A DNA stretch of 64,000 nt. Source: a phage. The translations under genes and the position numbers were made by a program. The stretch lies in sequence record OZ413489.1; one strand, given 5' to 3'. Positions 2,467 through 27,372 of this stretch are shown here, one piece after another. Numbering within the stretch: the first letter of the stretch is position 1; the number at the start of each line of letters is the position of its first letter. The notes beneath the pieces are model-generated. The model made no database searches. It was not told the DNA's origin and saw nothing but the letters and a program-made list of their open reading frames with translations.

Positions 2467-4896
2467 ATGAGCATGTGGTCGTTCGACTTTGAGTCATCCG
2501 GTTTGCTGGAAGACCCAGATCTTTATTATCACTGCGGCCTGTTTAAAGAGCTGAATAAGAACCGTTTTATGCTGTTCCTTCCTCTAAATGACCGCACACA
2601 CTACTCCGAGGAGGATATAGAAAAGGCTAAGAACTTCATTCTGGCAAAGAAAACTCTTTATAAAGATTTTGAAGTTCGCATAGCAGATTTTTCAGAGTTG
2701 GAAGGTTGGCTTACAGGAAATTCTGACTGGTCACCAACAGCTTTGAACTGCCATAACTGCTACAGTTATGACTTTATGCTGATGGAAAGATTATCTGGTA
2801 TTCATTTTGATATGTTCCGTGATCCTAAATGTATGGGGACTATCAACGATCACCAGGTTAACCTGTTTGATACGTTGGCGATGAGCCGAATCTTGTGGCC
2901 TGATCGCCCTTTACCAAAAGGTTGTCCGGACTCTGTATTCAACCCGGTTACTAAGAAAATGCAGCCTGTTGGTCCTCACGGCCTTATGGCATGGGGCTAC
3001 GCCCTTGGTAACCAGAAAGTTCAAATTGATGACTGGCGCGATCTTCCGTTGTGGAAGTATGTGGATCGTGTATTCGAGGACGTTATCATCCAGGAGCTGC
3101 TCTGGAAAGAGCTGGTAGCGGAATCAAAAGGTGTATTCTACGGCAAATCTGACATGCAGAACTTTATGTACGATCCGGCCAAAGAGAAGCCGAAAGGGTT
3201 CAAGAAGATCACCTGGAAGAACGCATTACGTCGAGGCATGCTGCAGCACTTCCTGATGGAGCTGCAGGCCCGTCAGGGTGTATACTTCGACATAGATGGA
3301 GCTATTGCTTTACGTGACCGTTGCGATGCGTGGATGAAAGAAATCGCTGATCGTGTTGAACCACAACTACCTTTAAAAGAGCTGTCAATGTCTCAGCGGC
3401 CCAAGTTCCCTGAAAAGCCGTTTAACCAAGACGGGACAATCTCTAATAATGGTTGGAAATGGTTAAAAGATAAGCTTGGCTATCCTGTAGACATGAGTGC
3501 TTTAGAGTTCAAAGCCCTGCCTAAGCGAGCATTTACCTCTACAGGAGATGTCAGCAAGATGGGGATAAAATGGTGTGAAGAGATGGGCTGCAAAGACCCC
3601 GATAAGATGGCTGATTTCTTGAGAGGCTATATTAAGGGCACCTCCACACCACAACCCTTACCTAAAGAGCTGATGGATCAGGCAATAAGTGATCTGCAGC
3701 AGAAGCGAATGCCTGACTGCAAGATACCTATGAAAATCAGCAATCAGGACGACATCAAGCGATACCTAATCAGTGCTGGTTGGCTCCCAACAATGTGGAG
3801 AACTAAAGATGTAACTAAAGACAGCAAGAAGAAAGCTTTACCTGATGCAGATGTTGATGCACGAGTATATGCATATATGGACGAGCTTTTGGAGTCAGAG
3901 TATTGTGACCTAATTATCAACTTCTGGAACAAAACTGATGCTAAGTTCCAGACAACCGTGCACAAGTTCCGAAGCTTTCCTAACTCCGAAAGGATTAAAA
4001 AGGAAGTATTCGGGAAAATACGTAGAAAAGCCAGGGCACTTATTACTTCTCCGCAACTGAAAGATACGTTTGGACACCTATGCCCAAATCTTGAAAAATT
4101 GAACGGAGAGATGGCTAAAGATATCGTCTTGTGGTTATCATTGCGAAACCGCAGATCGGTCCTTGATCCAATCAAGGAGGATAAGGTTGATACTGGTCTT
4201 CTTAATCACCCACGTTTGAAGATTGACCATAAGCTTCCTGCTAAAAGCTCTGGATTAACAAACACTTCCAGACAGAAACACAGTATTTGTGCAAACATGC
4301 CTAAACCATCTCCTAAAGTAGTTATGGGTAAAGAGATGCGTAGTCTGTGGGGTGTTCCTCCAGGATACTTTGAGATCGGTATTGACGGGTCCAACTTAGA
4401 GCAGCTCATCGGGGCTTGGGGTGCCTTTGAGTTCGACAACGGCTTGTATTATGATGTTGTAAGTAACGGAGACGCACACCAAAACAATGCTGAGGCATAT
4501 ACAAAAGTGGCAGGCAGAGAGGTGTCCCGTAACGACGGTAAACCTATCACGTATGGGGTTATGTACGGGGCACAAAAAGATAAAGTTGCAGATATGCTGG
4601 ACATCTCCCCAGAGTTGGGACAAAGGGTAATCGATGCACTCTGGGATGCCAACCCAGGTCTTAAGGGGCGCAAAGAGGATCTGGAGAAATTCTGGGAAGC
4701 AACAGGTAAGAAGTTTATCTACTCTTTTGATGGTCATGCTATCTGGACCCGATCTAAACACTCTTTACTTAATGCATACCAACAAAATGGCGGTGCATCG
4801 TTGTGTGACTTAGTTGGAATACTCATGCACCACCAGATGGTGAAGCGTGGGTGGTACGATGAAGGTGTTCGTCGTATTATTTATTACCATAAATAA
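2467..4896 (+). CDS. DNA polymerase, family A (T7 / Pol I type)
   Basis: 809 aa; N-terminal exo motif FDFESSG; motif A-like IGIDGSNLEQL; motif B-like KPITYGVMYGAQ. Confidence 0.85.
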   Translation: MSMWSFDFESSGLLEDPDLYYHCGLFKELNKNRFMLFLPLNDRTHYSEEDIEKAKNFILAKKTLYKDFEVRIADFSELEGWLTGNSDWSPTALNCHNCYSYDFMLMERLSGIHFDMFRDPKCMGTINDHQVNLFDTLAMSRILWPDRPLPKGCPDSVFNPVTKKMQPVGPHGLMAWGYALGNQKVQIDDWRDLPLWKYVDRVFEDVIIQELLWKELVAESKGVFYGKSDMQNFMYDPAKEKPKGFKKITWKNALRRGMLQHFLMELQARQGVYFDIDGAIALRDRCDAWMKEIADRVEPQLPLKELSMSQRPKFPEKPFNQDGTISNNGWKWLKDKLGYPVDMSALEFKALPKRAFTSTGDVSKMGIKWCEEMGCKDPDKMADFLRGYIKGTSTPQPLPKELMDQAISDLQQKRMPDCKIPMKISNQDDIKRYLISAGWLPTMWRTKDVTKDSKKKALPDADVDARVYAYMDELLESEYCDLIINFWNKTDAKFQTTVHKFRSFPNSERIKKEVFGKIRRKARALITSPQLKDTFGHLCPNLEKLNGEMAKDIVLWLSLRNRRSVLDPIKEDKVDTGLLNHPRLKIDHKLPAKSSGLTNTSRQKHSICANMPKPSPKVVMGKEMRSLWGVPPGYFEIGIDGSNLEQLIGAWGAFEFDNGLYYDVVSNGDAHQNNAEAYTKVAGREVSRNDGKPITYGVMYGAQKDKVADMLDISPELGQRVIDALWDANPGLKGRKEDLEKFWEATGKKFIYSFDGHAIWTRSKHSLLNAYQQNGGASLCDLVGILMHHQMVKRGWYDEGVRRIIYYHK

Positions 4897-4920
4897 CATT
4901 GTGGCTTCATAGAGTAATCT

Positions 4921-5079
4921 ATGTCGAATAACCTCTTTAACTGCGGGAAGCCTAAACCTTATGGCAAGGTAATCCGCAACGAAGCGCTCAAAAGAGCGAA
5001 CGCTCAGAGGCCATTCCGAAAGGAAGTAGACCAGCAAGTGCGGTCGAAATGGGAGGATTCCTGTGGTTGCTTATCATAG
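4921..5079 (+). CDS. small hypothetical protein (52 aa)
   Basis: ATG ORF below the track size cutoff in the gap after the polymerase gene; weak RBS. Confidence 0.3.
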   Translation: MSNNLFNCGKPKPYGKVIRNEALKRANAQRPFRKEVDQQVRSKWEDSCGCLS

Positions 5080-5163
5080 GAATATGAGATGGTCCGATCC
5101 TACGTGAAAACGTATGGCTATGCACGTAATGGTGCGGGGTAGCTTAACGACCTACCTGAACTA

Positions 5164-5520
5164 TTGGATGAGTACCAACTTCAAGTGCCTGACACACCGA
5201 AGTATAAGACTGTGTACACCTTCGACACAATTGAAGAACTGGAAGCATTTAAGGCAGAGCAGGAAGCCAAACTTCATGTGTTCGACGGTCATAAGTACAA
5301 AAAGGCACGCAAGGATGAGGACGGAAACGAAGTGGTTGACAGAGACGGAAACACGGTGTACGATCCTATCCTGAACGATGACGGAAAGCTTGAACTTATC
5401 TGGAGCCCTGTGGGTGAAATGGTGGTACATTGCTTCTGGCAAGCTTCTAAAATGATGGGAGTCCCGTTCCAGATCACAGGTGAATACTTGTGTGGTCGTA
5501 ATTGGGGTGATTGTCACTAA
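5164..5520 (+). CDS. hypothetical protein
   Basis: 118 aa ORF; track start is TTG, true start uncertain. Confidence 0.45.
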   Translation: MDEYQLQVPDTPKYKTVYTFDTIEELEAFKAEQEAKLHVFDGHKYKKARKDEDGNEVVDRDGNTVYDPILNDDGKLELIWSPVGEMVVHCFWQASKMMGVPFQITGEYLCGRNWGDCH

Positions 5521-14079: not shown

Positions 14080-14540
14080 GATTTCTAAAATGGATTTCCT
14101 CCTTTTGATATTTCACCGGGCCGGATATTTTAAAATTCTTAGAAAATCAGAAAATGGATCGAAAACTAAAATGGATTTTTCAGAGTAGGCGCGACAAGCT
14201 GAATAACTCATCCTATCGTTTGCACCATATTCCAGGCCACCATTATAGATTTCCCACACATGCTAACCTCCCTCTACTAGAACTTCCTCCACTTACCCTT
14301 GACCTTCTATGGTAACAATCTAACCGCTATCTTGAAGTTGCTGTGCAGCTTTCCAGGTACTCGATCTACTTTTCATTTCAGGGCTTGGATTTTCTGAAAA
14401 TTTTTCTCGATAAATTTCTCAGTACTCGATCTGTTTTTCGTTTTCTGAATCGGATTTTCTGGAAATCGTTCCGGCTCTCGACCTGAAATTTTTGGGGACG
14501 AAATCGATTTTTCGTTTTCAGAAATGGATTTTTAAAATTT
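14080..14540. repeat. iteron-like direct repeats (AAAATGGAT x4; about 35 bp TCGATCT...GGATTTTCTG unit x3)
   Basis: AAAATGGAT at about 14087, 14151, 14168, 14522; longer units at about 14358, 14422, 14501; AT-rich, no ORF. Confidence 0.6.
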
Positions 14541-14646
14541 CTATATGGGAATATTTTATGGGATACTGTTTTATAGGAAATTGTTACGGAGGGTAATTAG
14601 CGTGCTAATTAAATTTATTAAATGCGAGGAGTTCTCATTTAGAATT

Positions 14647-14838
14647 TTGAATGATAATCATTCTCGTTTGCAGAATAACGGGCAGGCCCGGTGATTGTCT
14701 CCCGGCCCCTACTGCCCCGGCTTGTTATTATAGTATCACACAGGACAAAGAAAGCAAGGATTTTTTGCATAAATTTTTAAATGATAATGATAACCGTTCT
14801 CATTTTATGCAGCGCCCATCCCCGGTGGTTGTCTCCCC
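14647..14838. repeat. two tandem units: Fur-box-like AT core + TTCTCRTTT..GCAG + GC-rich tail
   Basis: Unit 1 14647-14703, unit 2 14779-14838; cores match the Fur consensus at about 15-16 of 19 positions by hand alignment. Confidence 0.5.
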
Positions 14839-15060
14839 CGTCACCGGTGCCTGCCGTCCTTTCGATAGGTATATCGTGCCACCTGGCGGGGCCGCTGTCA
14901 ACACTTTTCAAAAAATTTTTCTAACCTGATGCGCTAACCGCTGCAACCTGGCGGGGTCAGCCTGGCAGGACCTAACTGACCGGGTAGGAGAGAATGAAGG
15001 CTTGTAAACCTGGTGGGCCTATGCTACAGGATAGGTAACAATTGAAGAGGAGGTACAAAA

Positions 15061-15228
15061 ATGAAAGGTAATATGATCCCCCTAGAAAATGTAGCTATTA
15101 ATGACGCTGAGGCTATCGCCCTGGTTGAAAAGGCTATGGCGGGAGCGTTGGAACATAAAGAAGAGTACGAAAAATGGTGGTTAACCTGGCGGGGGCGGCA
15201 GGTGGATTCTATCATAAAAATAATTTAA
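15061..15228 (+). CDS. small hypothetical protein (55 aa)
   Basis: ATG ORF below track cutoff with strong RBS GAAGAGGAGG. Confidence 0.4.
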   Translation: MKGNMIPLENVAINDAEAIALVEKAMAGALEHKEEYEKWWLTWRGRQVDSIIKII

Positions 15229-15236
15229 AATAGTCG

Positions 15237-15266
15237 TTGACAACAAGGTTAATCATGGTATTATTA
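15237..15266 (+). promoter_or_regulatory. sigma70-type promoter (TTGACA, -10 TATTAT)
   Basis: Preceded by AATAGTCG as at 6641. Confidence 0.5.
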
Positions 15267-15314
15267 CCCTACAAGGTGAACAACACCGCACTAACCAGTA
15301 AAGAGGATAAATTT

Positions 15315-15512
15315 ATGAACGCATACGGGATCAAAGTACGTCGCAACACTCGCCAGGTGGTCACCAATCAAGTGATTTGCCGGGTGGATGTAACCATCAA
15401 CAACGGGCAAGGCCTTTATAAATTTCGTCGCGGTCATAGCTATACCCTGCAACAGCTTAATCGTTGCGCCCTGACAAAAGGTCAGATCAACCATTGGTTT
15501 AATAAAAAATAA
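15315..15512 (+). CDS. hypothetical protein
   Basis: Track ORF 15237-15512 (TTG = promoter -35) trimmed to ATG after AAGAGGA RBS. Confidence 0.45.
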   Translation: MNAYGIKVRRNTRQVVTNQVICRVDVTINNGQGLYKFRRGHSYTLQQLNRCALTKGQINHWFNKK

Positions 15513-15515
15513 GTA

Positions 15516-15544
15516 TTGACATACAGTCCGACACCAAATACACT
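15516..15544 (+). promoter_or_regulatory. sigma70-type promoter (TTGACA-17-TACACT)
   Basis: Upstream of the 15577 gene. Confidence 0.5.
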
Positions 15545-15576
15545 AAAAGCACAAAAGACACTAAGAGGATAAAATC

Positions 15577-15975
15577 ATGAAAACCACTACCTTTAATTTT
15601 GATAATGCAGACTTTTCTTTTTCTGATGTCAAGAACTGCCGCCGTGATCGTGGATTTTACAAGGCTTATAATCTGGTGGGCCTGGACGATGACAATAATT
15701 TGCACGAAGTAGCTGAGATCCGGTATTATGCCGCCGCCAGCGGTAACACTAACTACTGCGTTTTTTGGATACACGACAACAAGAACAATAAGTACGGTTA
15801 TACTGGTGGCAAGGCTAGCGGTCACGGTTATGATAAAGCCAACGCTGCACTTGAAAGCGCATTAAATGCCATGGGAATCACTGCCGACGGCTGGATCTAT
15901 GAAGAAGAGTTTTTGGCGGCACTTGCTGCCCACCTGGGCTATAAAAAGCACATTGTAACATGCGCCCACGAATAA
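15577..15975 (+). CDS. hypothetical protein
   Basis: 132 aa ORF with AAGAGGA RBS. Confidence 0.5.
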   Translation: MKTTTFNFDNADFSFSDVKNCRRDRGFYKAYNLVGLDDDNNLHEVAEIRYYAAASGNTNYCVFWIHDNKNNKYGYTGGKASGHGYDKANAALESALNAMGITADGWIYEEEFLAALAAHLGYKKHIVTCAHE

Positions 15976-15986
15976 AAAAAAAATTA

Positions 15987-16015
15987 TTGACACGCTGCAA
16001 AATTCAAGTAAACTA
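15987..16015 (+). promoter_or_regulatory. sigma70-type promoter (TTGACA, -10 TAAACT)
   Basis: Upstream of the 16063 gene. Confidence 0.5.
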
Positions 16016-16062
16016 GGCACAAAAGGCGGGAATGTTTCCCGCCAACACGAAGGAAAAAGATC

Positions 16063-16458
16063 ATGAATAAAAACGTACGCCGCATCATGAACGAACTGGC
16101 AAACGATGAAAAAATTATTGATATGCATTTGGTCAACATTTGCCGCCGTTGTGTAACATATAACAACCGCGCCGCAAAAGCGCGTGAGATGAACGCAAAA
16201 GGCACCTTAAAGCCCTTTCAGGTGGTTGTAAAATCTATGACCAGTGCAGCAGGCCAGGCGCATGACCACAACAACGGGAGCACTAATATTGATCCATCTT
16301 ACGTAATGAAACGGATCCGGACTTGCAAGAATAAAGAGCAGGTGTATAACGTCATAGATTGGCTGGACTCCCTGGGTGACGTGGTTTACAATAGGTTTTC
16401 TGCAGCTATTGAAATTCAGTTAGACAGGTTGGACGGGAAAGTACTGAAAACTTACTGA
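16063..16458 (+). CDS. hypothetical protein
   Basis: 131 aa ORF with AGGAAAAAGA RBS. Confidence 0.5.
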   Translation: MNKNVRRIMNELANDEKIIDMHLVNICRRCVTYNNRAAKAREMNAKGTLKPFQVVVKSMTSAAGQAHDHNNGSTNIDPSYVMKRIRTCKNKEQVYNVIDWLDSLGDVVYNRFSAAIEIQLDRLDGKVLKTY

Positions 16459-16460
16459 GT

Positions 16461-16506
16461 TTATTTTTAGATGGCCTTGACTCCAGGGCCATCAATAAAG
16501 TAAACT
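16461..16506 (+). repeat. conserved stem-loop element, copy A
   Basis: TTTTTAGATGGCCTTGACTCCAGGGCCATCAATAAAGTAAAC; 7 bp stem GATGGCC/GGCCATC; immediately 3' of stop codon. Confidence 0.6.
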
Positions 16507-22848: not shown

Positions 22849-22867
22849 TACAACAAGGTGCACGGTC

Positions 22868-22893
22868 AGGGGCTTAAAGCCCCTTTCTTTTTG
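22868..22893 (+). terminator. rho-independent terminator ending the rightward block
   Basis: AGGGGC-TTAAA-GCCCCT followed by TTCTTTTTG. Confidence 0.65.
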
Positions 22894-23772
22894 TCTCCTC
22901 TTTTCCTACCACAAATGGCCCCGCCTGGCAAATGGAATAATCAACAAGCCAGCAATTAACCCCACTGTACAAACATACATATAAAATAACTATTGCATAA
23001 TTTTTCATTGTGTGGTAGCAGTGCCATTTTTACACGTTTTTCCTTCCAAAATTGCACGTAATGCAGCATTTGCACAAAATTTAACCTGATGCATATCTTC
23101 AATAGCTTGTCAACAACTAAAAATCTTTATAAGTCATACACTTACATAACTACAAAAACGTTTTCTACGTGAAAAATCGAGTATAACTATAGCCGCCAGA
23201 TCTCAGAATTTACGTACGCTCGCCATTCTATAGCCTGCTAAGCATTTATTCCAACCATAGAATAACGGAATAGTCAATACCTGCATAAAATAATTATTCG
23301 TGTAAACTGCATAACATAAATCGGCCCAGGTGTCAACATTTTTCGTAAACAGTCTGGAATTGTCACGTTAGGTTACCATAAGCAGAGAAATCTTTAGTCG
23401 TCTAATGTTTACTGTACATTACTATACTGACTGGAATCATTAGATGACTAAGAGAAAGATAAGAAATAATTAATAATGTAATTATTTTACCTGTAACAAT
23501 AAGGCAACTATGCAAACGAATGGCATGGCGCGACGGAGTCGCGACATAATATAAAAGCAGTAACCATCACCCCCGTGATAGTTTGTCTGCAAACTATTAA
23601 TCAGATCATAGTTGCCTTGTATTTAGTTAATCATGACATGACAAGCAAGGCAACTATAGATCTGCTAATAGTTGCCCTGCTTTTATATTATGTCATGCTA
23701 ATTATAATCAGTGCGATTATTGTCATGTATAATTATTGTCATGCAAACGAATGGCATGGCTGATTATCGGTG

Positions 23773-23859
23773 TGTAAACAGTCAATCATGTAAATGGTTA
23801 GCATGTGAACAATCAGGAATGTAAACAATCCAGTGTGTAAACTAATAGGTGTGTAAAAG
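23773..23859. repeat. iteron array: six TGTRAAMW octamers at about 16 bp spacing
   Basis: Copies start near 23773, 23789, 23804, 23820, 23836, 23852. Confidence 0.65.
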
Positions 23860-24001
23860 TGTCATGTTGTGTCAGTTAGGTCACATTATGTCAGACAAGT
23901 TTTTCTCCTCTTTGTCAAGTGCTGCATGAAAAATTTACAAGCTTGTATGGTAGCATTTTTGCGGCCCTGTTTACATTCAGTAATGTATGTATAATCCTTG
24001 T

Positions 24002-24165
24002 TGTGTGGGCGTTTAGACGTCTAGACGGTTGGAAGTCCACAGGTCAATATCTAATCTATCGGCTGCTAACTATATCCCACACATGTGTGGGCGTTTAGAC
24101 GTCTAGACGGTTGGAAGTCCACAGGTCAATATCTAATCTATCGGCTGCTAACTATATCCCACACA
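24002..24165. repeat. perfect tandem duplication of an 82 bp unit with 8 bp terminal inverted repeats
   Basis: Unit TGTGTGGG...CCCACACA at 24002-24083 and 24084-24165; internal palindromes AGACGTCT / GTCTAGAC. Confidence 0.8.
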
Positions 24166-25461
24166 AATAGTAAGAAATATGATTGTTATATGCGTAAACT
24201 GTAACTCATGTTATCAATCCCTGTATGGATCGCCAGTGGTGCGCATAATAGGTATTATGTTAAATTGCCCGTAATGATAACAGTTCTCACAATGATAGGT
24301 ATTCTCATTCATCCACACAAAATAGGTTGCAAATGTTGTGCCACTGTGTGAACGGCCTGGCCTATTAATTTCTCTCACTGCCTCGATATTTGAGAATTGT
24401 TATAAGAATGAGAAGTATTCCCATTCCGTCCGCCTGGCAGCACTCCTGTAGGTCCTGCAAGGACTCTAGCTGAAAGCTAGACCCTTCGGGCCTCCCTGTA
24501 GGTCAGGTCAAAATCGTGGTAGAATTGGGCCTGTTCAGATATTTCTGGCTGACTCTTCAGGTCTGTGTGGGAAAAGCCAACCTCTCCGGCGGGGCAGGGG
24601 GTCATGACGGGAAAATTGCAGGTCAATTAAAAAATTTACGTGGTGTATGAAGCGCTCTTCAGGTAAGGCATGTATTATGGGATGAAACCCTCTTCAGGCA
24701 ATGATATTTGTGGGTGTGATATTTGCTGGAAAGCCAGATATGACGGGACTCCCGGCGGGGATGGGGTAGTACAGACAGGGAAAATATGAGAATGTAGTTG
24801 GGGAAATTGATCAGACAGGTAGAGTATGGAATATGTTACAAGTATGTTAAATATGGAGGTTGAATATCTGTAGGATTTGTGTGTAAAATCAAAGACTTAA
24901 GGGGTGTTGTGGTATTTTCTATAAATAATTCAAGTTTAATAGGCAATATTTGTCTCTATCCGCTTTGTGTGGTAAACAGATTCAGATTAGATTGGTTTAC
25001 AAGTGTATACATAATATACAAATTAAAGATACAAGAAACCCCCCTCCCCCTTCGGCTACCATTCACCTTTTCCTCTGACTGGTACTTAAACACTTATTCA
25101 GACTCTTCAGGTTATCACCCATATATCATATGGCAGTGACTGGTGTCCTCCGGCCCCTCTTTCGTCACCCGTCCGCTTCGCCATGCTAATGCCATAGCCA
25201 ATGGTTCGGTTGTTCACTCTGTTCACTCAGGTGTATCTCCATACCCCTTCAAACCGAAGAGAACAGAAAACCCGAATTACTCGGTAAAAGAAAAGAGAAG
25301 AACTTAATTTTATCAGGATAGGCAAGAATGTCAAGGCATGACTGCTCACTAAACAAGCAAACAGTCATGTGTGGAAGGTAAGTGATTGTGGTGGTGGGAA
25401 ATTTAGTTGAAAGATGTGTTATAGGTGCTCCCAGCACTTTAGCCGGGTAGCTAATTGTGTG

Positions 25462-25677
25462 TCAGTCCAGTGGTTCATCACCTACTTCACTGAAATCAAT
25501 GTTCATGGTCTCCTCCCAACCATCAATCTCAGCACCAGAGTAGAGATCTTTAGGACTTACTCCCAAAGCATCAGCAACAGAGTCCATATTTAACACCTCT
25601 GGCAGGTATGATTCATCGAATTCAAGGTAAATCAGGCCACGAGTGTTGTCAGCTCCACCAAATATTTCTATCTTCAT
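25462..25677 (-). CDS. small acidic protein, MKIEI family
   Basis: Track ORF 25462-25743 trimmed to internal Met MKIEIFGG. Confidence 0.4.
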   Translation of the reverse strand: MKIEIFGGADNTRGLIYLEFDESYLPEVLNMDSVADALGVSPKDLYSGAEIDGWEETMNIDFSEVGDEPLD

Positions 25678-27066: not shown

Positions 27067-27372
27067 TTATTCTACAGAGCGTTTGAACAGAATGTCTGCC
27101 TCAGACATGTGCTCAACCTCTTCTTCGATTTTAGCTCGACGTTTTTCAGCCTCATATCGAATATCGAACTCGGTAGCCACCAGAGATTTGATGAATTTAG
27201 GAGAATACAGATGATCCTGCTTCTCAACAAGAATGATATCCTTGATGGCATCTTTCAAATCTTTAATCTGAAGCTGGAGTTCCACCAGTTCTTCAATTGT
27301 TTTGCGAAGGCGATCACGTTCTGCAGTGTCAGAAGGAAGAGAGGTGAACAGTTCAACTTTAGATTTAGCCAT
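27067..27372 (-). CDS. hypothetical coiled-coil protein
   Basis: 101 aa, charged heptad-like sequence. Confidence 0.5.
   Translation of the reverse strand: MAKSKVELFTSLPSDTAERDRLRKTIEELVELQLQIKDLKDAIKDIILVEKQDHLYSPKFIKSLVATEFDIRYEAEKRRAKIEEEVEHMSEADILFKRSVE

Follow-up and report, generated by a model that had tools for sequence, protein, structure and literature searches.

The 2.6-kb gene-free zone at positions 22894-25461 of the 64,000-nucleotide stretch of the phage record OZ413489.1 that we analysed (the window) is very probably the terminal, concatemer-junction and packaging region of the genome, which would be packaged with short, exact direct terminal repeats (DTRs) in a T7-like manner. 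This reading follows from the terminal repeat of the related phages EdH4 and HdK5, which maps to 23894-24434, within the zone. An earlier note on this DNA had left the choice between a replication origin, a packaging site and a locus of structured non-coding RNA; the packaging or terminus option was supported by a DTR homologue with both predicted cut sites, while structured RNA was not supported by either Rfam searches or folding.

Gene setting and coding content of the zone

The phage of OZ413489.1 is a Vequintavirus (an rV5-like coliphage), and the zone is matched by 122 phage records, 98 of which cover at least 80% of it. Its earlier description as an ORF-free, repeat-dense stretch between converging blocks proved accurate, with gene orientation flipping from plus to minus across the zone and no coding signature within it. 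The terminator thought to close the rightward block consists of a 7-pair hairpin (22868-22884) followed by a T-run, and the leftward gene end at 25462 is annotated likewise in relatives. According to the relatives' annotations the neighbours of the zone are small hypothetical proteins, and no initiator gene is annotated beside it in the relatives compared; no tRNA or tmRNA genes were found, and scanning IMG/VR with a protein from the flank yielded just two loci. The same locus, between ORF163 and ORF164 of rV5, is the 'non-coding' box of the rV5 genome (104013-106618, without ORFs; PMC3606486), for which the relevant passages of that paper give no function and make no mention of repeats or genome ends.

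We scored all zone ORFs of at least 30 aa (n=28) for third-codon-position bias among variable sites. None of the 28 showed such bias, so that the claim of 'no credible ORF' also holds in a comparative test, and the majority were disrupted in relatives. Both flanking genes displayed a strong third-position bias in their variable sites ([9,5,46] and [9,6,34]). The comparison across related phages that had been proposed thus revealed conserved blocks without coding bias; the small 'hypothetical proteins' that some records annotate in the zone differ between records, and we do not accept them as genes.

Could the zone be DNA in decay, with no function and composed of the remains of genes and of repeats that drift? 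It tolerates large indels and a private duplication, and CCTGAAGAG also occurs as Pro-Glu-Glu codons in apparent coding sequence elsewhere in the window. However, most blocks vary at 10-36% of sites, whereas the neighbouring genes vary at about 50% of their third codon positions, the boundaries and block order are kept in 19 aligned relatives, and another genus shows this architecture too, leaving decay barely credible. The features of the zone are collected in Table 1.

Table 1. Features of the gene-free zone and its left border (window positions; strand where assigned)
Feature	Position	Strand	Remarks
Intrinsic terminator	22868-22893	+	ends rightward gene block; annotated as terminator in phages Alma and Murica
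AT-rich conserved non-coding spacer	22894-23493		GC 0.33-0.40; no coding signature
Palindromic cluster	23494-23697		potential branched hairpin, roughly 170 nt
Segment between 20-mer direct repeats	23510-23760		repeats at 23510-23529 and 23741-23760; absent in phage FV3
Hypervariable iteron arrays	23766-23893	+	six GTGTAAAC/GTGAACA-type units at about 15-bp spacing, then TGTCA x4 with 10-bp phasing
DTR homologue	23894-24434	-	541 bp here, 459 bp in relatives; EdH4/HdK5 ends map here
82-bp tandem duplication	24002-24165		in DTR; unit bounded by 8-nt inverted repeats, TGTGTGGG...CCCACACA
Short repeated motifs	24385-24785	+	straddle DTR start
Hypervariable region	24435-24634		directly outside other DTR boundary; relatives differ by insertion, deletion or replacement of hairpin modules
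Strongly constrained non-coding block	25035-25384	-	99-100% identity across 19 relatives
Strong sigma-70-type promoter	25307-25334	-	TTGACA, 16-nt spacer, TG-extended TAAAAT

The probable direct terminal repeat and its predicted cut sites

In the GenBank records of EdH4 and HdK5 (MK327930, MK373780), 459 of 459 bases are identical between the two ends, and this repeat maps to 24434->23894 of the window with a single 82-bp unit. Terminal redundancies of 458 bp were reported for both phages, whose ends were placed where most PacBio reads stop abruptly (Korf et al. 2019, PMC6563267). The stretch 24434->23894 aligns end to end with both repeats at 93-95% identity, and both boundary sequences (GGCGGACGG and ...AACTTGTC) are intact in the window. 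The homologous repeats agree in both boundaries and in the non-coding blocks beside them; the copy in OZ413489.1 differs in its length, because an 82-bp unit is duplicated inside it (459 + 82 = 541), and in being present once, whereas EdH4 and HdK5 carry the repeat at both ends. The window therefore represents the collapsed junction form with one DTR copy, and the identity of the two ends was checked in relatives.

Across the relatives the DTR boundary sequences are 97% conserved, with hypervariable blocks directly outside both. Records of the four bov phages, Pr121LW, ECP2303 and ECP2309 begin or end exactly at these boundaries, most Vequintavirus GenBank records being opened elsewhere. In addition, nine extra matching places among 120 records are consistent with records in which each end bears the repeat.

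By homology, we predict cut sites at 23893/23894 (TGTCA^GACAAG) and 24434/24435 (minus strand, TGCCA^GGCGGACGG). Replicating genomes would be linked head to tail via the single repeat copy, and terminase would cut at these two fixed sites, with the repeat being duplicated during processing such that every virion DNA would begin 5'-GGCGGACGG... and carry the repeat at both ends. More precisely, the first bases of virion DNA would be 5'-GGCGGACGGAATGGG (reverse complement of 24420-24434) and the last ones of the DTR ...CTTGACAAAGAGGAGAAAAACTTGTC (reverse complement of 23894-23919). With fixed cuts around the repeat, the non-coding DNA to its left and right, roughly 1 kb each, would form the inboard portions of the genome's two ends, and the AT-rich spacer would accordingly be placed inboard of the DTR at one of them in our model.

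A different packaging mode has been proposed for this group. Two PhageTerm-based reports describe Vequintavirus genomes as 'circular permutated' (four bov phages) or 'headful (PAC)' (BpE1AUH), in which case the DNA would be packaged by the headful from a pac site and the 459-bp 'repeat' would be an assembly or annotation convention in some records. PhageTerm frequently fails with tagmentation libraries, and the deposited records of the same bov phages start at the EdH4 boundary. Headful packaging is also disfavoured by the abrupt PacBio read ends that define termini in two phages, by identical exact boundaries in the records of other submitters, by doubled coverage together with a PhageTerm DTR call in the homologous zone of KPP-1 (see below), and by end sequences that are conserved between genera. 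We consider it highly improbable.

The 82-bp tandem duplication inside the DTR is perfect, as had been noted (24002-24083/24084-24165), and is a strain-private event rather than a conserved element. All 19 aligned relatives (19/19) carry a single copy, and the duplication junction is absent from every record of the phage collection. One small hairpin in the unit displays compensatory changes. A candidate promoter at 23970-23995, which would start transcription at the 82-bp unit, was discarded; its spacer is just 14 nt long and it is absent from the promoter scan output.

Non-coding flanks and candidate cis-acting signals

On the left side of the DTR, the AT-rich spacer varies at 30% of sites compared to 50% at the third codon positions of the flanking genes. 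The 12-nt perfect inverted repeat recognized earlier (23608-19/23646-57) belongs to a bigger palindromic cluster, which contains CAAGGCAACTAT four times in alternating orientations together with an 18-nt perfect inverted repeat and has a DNA fold z of -8.3. A consensus-fold signal in the zone was confined to this palindrome (23440-23760) and appeared on both strands; the fold at 23494-23697 scores equally on the two, which fits a DNA palindrome. The cluster was also considered as a mobile element and rejected, as no extra copies were seen and the additional matching places fit records that are split at their ends or hold the repeat twice. The duplicated 20-mer ATGCAAACGAATGGCATGGC was recovered at 23510 and 23741, and FV3 (L011 in the alignment) is gapped from just past its first copy to just past the second. 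Since the FV3 record lacks the segment between these repeats, including the palindromic cluster, the segment is dispensable and the cluster not essential.

Next to this segment lies the iteron array, which matched its description: GTGTGTAAAC-like units about 15 bp apart (23770-23858) are followed by four TGTCA copies at 10-bp spacing (23860-23893). The array adjoins the DTR, the final TGTCA stopping at the predicted cut site, and is the least conserved part of the zone (79% of sites vary), with a copy number that appears to differ several-fold among the aligned relatives.

Iterons beside AT-rich DNA (GC 0.33-0.37 at 23000-23999) are also what a replication origin might look like, and the zone, chiefly its left flank at 22894-23893, could be or contain one, either through an iteron-bound initiator and AT-rich unwinding or through T7/T4-like transcript priming. 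Purifying selection on the non-coding flanks would suit an origin, as would a T7-like replisome: a family-A DNA polymerase is encoded in the window, and passages of the rV5 paper (PMC3606486) describe a gp4-like primase-helicase and place the polymerase of ICP1, a phage whose ORF-less space has an inferred origin, among the closest homologues. Against this, the iterons are precisely the most variable sequences in the zone, FV3 does without the palindromic cluster, transcription runs toward the zone from both sides and not away from it, and no initiator gene adjoins it. The skew change at the zone coincides with the transcription strand switch, and Kropinski et al. 2013 (PMC3606486), in the passages on skew, likewise link the changes in rV5 to transcription direction. 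We rate an origin here as rather unlikely.

On the right side, GATATTT occurs four times (24385, 24538, 24703 and 24718) and the GC-rich motif CCGGCGGGG(C)A(G/T)GGGG twice (24586 and 24752). The description of the GC-rich repeats as about 30 bp long was confirmed only in part, the match found being 15 nt at 87% identity. Recurrence of CTCTTCAGG was also confirmed, with four copies in the zone, three of them within 24385-24785 and the fourth at 25103. The whole-window count of this motif is 8 versus 0.6 expected; three copies far from the zone are Pro-Glu-Glu codons in apparent coding sequence, so the window-wide enrichment is in part codon-derived and we count just the four copies in the zone. 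That CTCTTCAGG might act in regulation or as a promoter was considered and not retained.

Further inward, the strongly constrained block at 25035-25384 has 10% variable sites, the level of first and second codon positions, and shows no coding bias, no Rfam match and no fold signal. Host mimicry by the right flank was not supported, as no E. coli homologue was found. Within the block, the sigma-70-type promoter (25334-25307) has 11/12 consensus matches plus an extended -10, is 99% conserved and is directed at the DTR, about 870 bp away.

A strong conserved promoter without a downstream ORF, together with a strongly constrained 350-bp block, raises the alternative that this promoter transcribes, within the zone, at least one large structured non-coding RNA, of the GOLLD/ROOL/OLE kind or of a new class. 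Indels of hairpin size at fixed sites between conserved blocks, and the compensatory changes in the small hairpin of the 82-bp unit, could be read in the same way. However, the covariance-model search that had been suggested gave no support: with Rfam 15 (including GOLLD, ROOL, OLE and HEARO), run on the entire window with gathering cut-offs and on the zone also at E <= 10, no zone match reached gathering score, and the relaxed threshold yielded only five chance matches of 18-20 bits (miRNA, CRISPR-repeat). Excess fold stability was absent from 24380-25300 and 25030-25300 on both strands (MFE z -0.8, -0.9, +0.9 and +1.7). Consensus folding, assessed by a sliding alifold scan with column-shuffle controls on a 20-genome alignment whose 19 relatives differ too little to test covariation strongly, was not significant across 23840-25440 on either strand. 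The sole strong fold is the palindrome on the left side, equal on both strands as expected of DNA, and we regard a structured RNA as improbable.

In a terminal region processed by exact cutting, these flanking elements would be likely cis-acting signals. At one cut site they may comprise the abutting phased TGTCA repeats and the iterons, at the other the nearby GATATTT and GC-rich motifs, and the constrained 350-bp block with its host-type promoter pointing at the repeat may constitute a further signal. Homology to experimentally defined ends, the exact boundaries, the lack of coding signal and the conservation pattern are observed, whereas recognition of particular flanking motifs by terminase, the mode of repeat duplication and any function of the promoter transcript are inferred. 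One specific, speculative version, to which we give a low probability, is that block 25035-25384 is a dedicated cis element whose sigma-70 transcript across the junction, made by host RNA polymerase, or the process of transcribing it, is needed for terminase cutting and repeat duplication, or primes replication. If true, a large myovirus would have a sigma-70-dependent counterpart of the mechanism by which T7 uses its right-end promoter and a pause at the junction.

Related termini and implications for Vequintavirus genomes

A comparable arrangement is present in Mydovirus, where KPP-1, DP and KP12, like Vequintavirus, have a short DTR (514 bp in these three) in an ORF-poor convergent zone. 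For KPP-1, doubled coverage and a PhageTerm DTR call define a 514-bp DTR at 116316-116829 (PMC9862379), which falls within a stretch homologous to our zone (KPP-1 115389-117840); phage DP carries an annotated 514-bp repeat_region, and KB57 has an ORF-poor zone with converging gene blocks. DP and KP12 start 5'-GACGGACAGC, and the repeat ends ...CTTGACAAGGAGAGAGAATCGTGTT, both resembling the Vequintavirus ends, such that the terminal sequences are similar in the two genera (GRCGGACRG...; ...CTTGACAA-GAG-AGA...TGT). Both genera likewise have an AAATATC motif, about 45 bp inward from the start of the DTR, and the global alignment of the Mydovirus and Vequintavirus repeats gave z = 4.8 against shuffles. 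Mydovirus differs in its overall repeat identity (about 51%), its repeat length, its other flanking repeats and the rearranged order of the surrounding genes. A synteny walk from a conserved 101-aa regulator-like gene did not reach the equivalent zone in other genera, since Mydovirus and Seunavirus have a rearranged gene order; the Mydovirus zone was located via annotation gaps and the published KPP-1 coordinates. A sigma-70-like promoter faces the repeat in KB57, but it matches at 9/12 positions and overlaps a hairpin, and is thus a weak parallel only.

The T7 genome reportedly has a 160-bp terminal repeat flanked by short-repeat arrays, with promoters near both ends, and its concatemer processing is said to duplicate the repeat. 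The junction proposed here resembles that of T7 in its short exact DTR, the short-repeat arrays directly outside it, a promoter toward the junction and a palindrome nearby. In contrast to T7, the phage is a myovirus with a genome of about 137 kb, its promoter is a host-type sigma-70 one and not one for a phage RNA polymerase, non-coding DNA extends for about 1 kb on either flank, and there is no sequence similarity; our junction is known by sequence comparison.

In ICP1, a 1.3-kb ORF-less space contains the pac site and an inferred rolling-circle origin (Barth et al. 2019, PMC7145576). The likeness lies in an ORF-less stretch at the genome terminus and a related family-A polymerase/primase-helicase replisome; unlike the exact DTR proposed here, packaging in ICP1 is reported as headful (pac), and its space has no sequence homology with the zone.

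A DTR-type terminus at this position is an ordinary feature, largely already known and documented in close relatives, and exact DTR packaging is a familiar mechanism. Recognizing the zone as the genome terminus nevertheless fixes the true start and end of widely isolated phages, most of whose deposited Vequintavirus records are opened arbitrarily with the repeat collapsed, and explains a 2.6-kb gene-free gap noted since 2013. It also pinpoints a conflict between PhageTerm calls of circular permutation and the deposited ends of close relatives. When such phages are engineered for therapy, the putative cis signals to retain are the cut sites together with the constrained blocks that flank them, and the same signals could be transferred to make packageable constructs.

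A probable terminal repeat within the gene-free zone

A search of the phage collection with window positions 22850-25500 retrieved 122 phage records, with identities of 80-99%. Almost all are from Vequintavirus (rV5-like coliphages), and in 98 at least 80% of the query is covered. In rV5 the zone (22894-25461) sits between ORF164 and ORF163; the accessible portion of the rV5 genome paper assigns it no function and reports, in its skew analysis, only changes linked to the direction of transcription (PMC3606486). Approximately 19 matching records are labelled 'Campylobacter phage' and are 90-94% identical to the zone of this E. coli Vequintavirus; A147, the one fetched, is an unannotated record marked UNVERIFIED. 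Probably these host labels are wrong, or samples were mixed.

Several GenBank records start or stop within the zone at two recurring positions, ~23894 and ~24434. The EdH4 (MK327930) and HdK5 (MK373780) records (Korf et al. 2019, PMC6563267), both ends of which were fetched, carry an exact 459-bp repeat at each end (459/459 identical), which maps to the minus strand from 24434 down to 23894 with one 82-bp unit; 459 + 82 gives 541 bp, the exact span of 23894-24434. On the minus strand, 24420-24434 reads 5'-GGCGGACGGAATGGG, with which virion DNA would start, and 23894-23919 reads ...CTTGACAAAGAGGAGAAAAACTTGTC, which would close the repeat. The two cut contexts are alike when both are read in the direction of the repeat (TGTCA^GACAAG vs TGCCA^GGCGGA). 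Four bov phages, Pr121LW and ECP2303 start or stop at the same bases, as did ECP2309 in an earlier search. Searching with the repeat located it 129 times across 120 records, and the nine surplus occurrences fit records that, like EdH4 and HdK5, have it at both ends. For the virion DNA of close relatives, fixed ends bearing a direct repeat of 459 bp are established, and the window holds the homologous junction with both boundaries, in line with the packaging site that the earlier note had offered as one option.

Packaging calls for Vequintavirus disagree across the literature. Headful packaging, to which PhageTerm reports point, conflicts with the ends defined for EdH4 and HdK5. The bov phages MT884008-MT884011 appear in print as 'circular permutated' on the basis of PhageTerm, and their deposited version-2 records begin exactly at the EdH4 repeat boundary.

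The perfect tandem duplication of 82 bp described earlier is present but private to this phage, and is not a conserved element. Every aligned relative showed an exact 82-bp overlap between two BLAST segments, the alignment with 19 relatives has 98% gaps across 24035-24084, and the duplication junction used as a query found a contiguous match in no record of the phage collection, its halves always matching opposite ends of one unit. Either the duplication arose recently or it is an assembly artefact of this genome. The two ends of the unit (24002-24083) are exact 8-nt inverted repeats of each other (TGTGTGGG...CCCACACA), so a perfect 16-bp palindrome results at the duplication junction.

Non-coding character and constraint

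Coding potential was assessed from variable sites by codon position in the window aligned with 19 relatives. While the two flanking genes gave [9,5,46] and [9,6,34], a bias toward the third position was absent from all 28 zone ORFs of at least 30 aa, most of which are broken in relatives; this confirms the zone as non-coding, as had been proposed. Short 'hypothetical proteins' annotated there in some records are not the same from one record to another. The previously listed terminator, leftward gene end, iteron array, duplicated 20-mer and 12-nt inverted repeat were all recovered, and four CTCTTCAGG copies of the recurring motif were counted; the GC-rich repeats exist, at 15 nt and 87% identity rather than the ~30 bp claimed.

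Features of the window, with variable sites among aligned relatives
Feature	Position	Strand	Observation
Terminator-like hairpin	22868-22884		closes rightward block
AT-rich spacer	22894-23493		30%
Palindromic cluster	23494-23697		18%
Iterons	23761-23893		79%; array at 23766-23893
Repeat interior, three segments			19-32%
82-bp tandem duplication	24002-24165
Block	24435-24634		38%; numerous hairpin-sized indels
Block	24635-25034		36%
Constrained block	25035-25384		10%
Strong sigma-70-type promoter	25334-25307	-	TTGACA, 16-nt spacer, TG-extended TAAAAT; start of constrained block
Leftward gene end	25462
101-aa protein	27067-27372	-	1.6 kb from zone
Group I intron	4881-5116	+	Rfam RF00028, 64.7 bits

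Third codon positions in the flanking genes, at which ~50% of sites vary, served as a near-neutral yardstick; at first and second positions 9% vary. The level of constraint measured in this way contradicts the view that the zone is junk DNA. Two hypervariable blocks lie directly outside the repeat boundaries, and the sequences at the boundaries are conserved at 97%. Small GC-rich hairpin modules (e.g. CACCCGAAGGGGTGACCAAAGGTCACCTGG; TTTCACC..GGTGAAA) are gained, lost or exchanged at fixed points between conserved blocks, at window-equivalent 23640, 23700, 24460 and 24604 in seven relatives (L006, L008, L010, L012, L014, L019, L020).

That the zone encodes a structured RNA, another option raised earlier, is not supported. 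The covariance-model search against Rfam suggested at that time gave no match in the zone, folding z-scores ranged from -0.9 to +1.7, and a consensus-fold scan was significant solely at the palindrome, on both strands. Within the 82-bp unit, a single 3-bp hairpin varies in a compensatory way (TTGG-AAGT-CCA(C) here vs TCAG-AAGT-CTG(C) in relatives), a signal too slight to build on.

Elsewhere in the window, a group I intron appears to split the family-A DNA polymerase gene: an 809-aa ORF (2467-4896) extends into it and a 118-aa ORF (5164-5520) follows. Introns are described in the terminase gene, not the polymerase, in the accessible portion of the rV5 paper (PMC3606486).

Possible working of the junction

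By analogy with T7-type phages, replication would yield concatemers in which each junction has a single copy of the repeat; terminase would read signals around the junction and cut at both boundaries, and duplication of the repeat would leave every genome with two copies. The candidate signals comprise the TGTCA repeats, phased at 10 bp and ending at the cut site, the iterons, GATATTT and GC-rich motifs close to the other boundary, and the constrained block, whose promoter is directed at the repeat. T7 processing involves a promoter that transcribes into the junction, together with a palindrome close by. The palindromic cluster of this phage (~170 nt) has a very stable DNA fold (z = -8.3). FV3 lacks a ~230-bp segment (23530-23760) containing the entire cluster, which is therefore dispensable; the deletion lies between two copies of the 20-mer ATGCAAACGAATGGCATGGC and fits a repeat-mediated event. 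SYGMH1, of the same species, retains the segment.

An additional role as an origin of replication, also put forward earlier, seems rather unlikely. The iterons adjoin a stretch of 33-35% GC, the replisome is T7-like, and ICP1 offers a precedent of a pac site and an inferred rolling-circle origin in ORF-less space (PMC7145576); however, the iterons are the fastest-changing part of the zone, an adjacent initiator gene is absent and transcription converges on the zone.

The layout in other genera

BLAST found no counterpart of the Vequintavirus zone beyond that genus. In Klebsiella phage KB57 (Mydovirus), an ORF-poor zone lies between converging gene blocks at 114.6-116.4 kb; its counterpart, KPP-1 115389-117840, contains the published 514-bp KPP-1 DTR (direct terminal repeat; 116316-116829), identified from doubled coverage and PhageTerm (PMC9862379). 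Phage DP has a 514-bp repeat_region annotated at its genome end, and KP12 begins at the same base. In these two Mydovirus phages, the DNA opens with 5'-GACGGACAGCTCCGG and the repeat closes with ...CTTGACAAGGAGAGAGAATCGTGTT, sequences like those at the Vequintavirus ends. In global alignment the repeats of the two genera are 51% identical (z = 4.8 against shuffles), and they share an AAATATC motif ~45 bp inside the repeat start. Parts of the Mydovirus zone (KB57 locus, 14500-16500) recur with ~80% DNA identity in Cronobacter phages and in Seunavirus (PVP-SE1, SSE121); in the latter no annotation lies beneath the match.

The 101-aa protein encoded near the zone is 100% identical in almost all Vequintavirus records listed; homologues (42-60% identical) annotated 'transcriptional regulator' occur in Mydovirus, Seunavirus, CR3-like Cronobacter phages and Aeromonas phages, and the gene neighbourhood differs in other genera.

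The zone is a real feature, and its core identity as a terminal repeat with its packaging junction has already been described in the genus. With KB57, KPP-1, DP and KP12 included, at least two genera of Vequintavirinae have a short terminal repeat in a gene-free zone of convergence.
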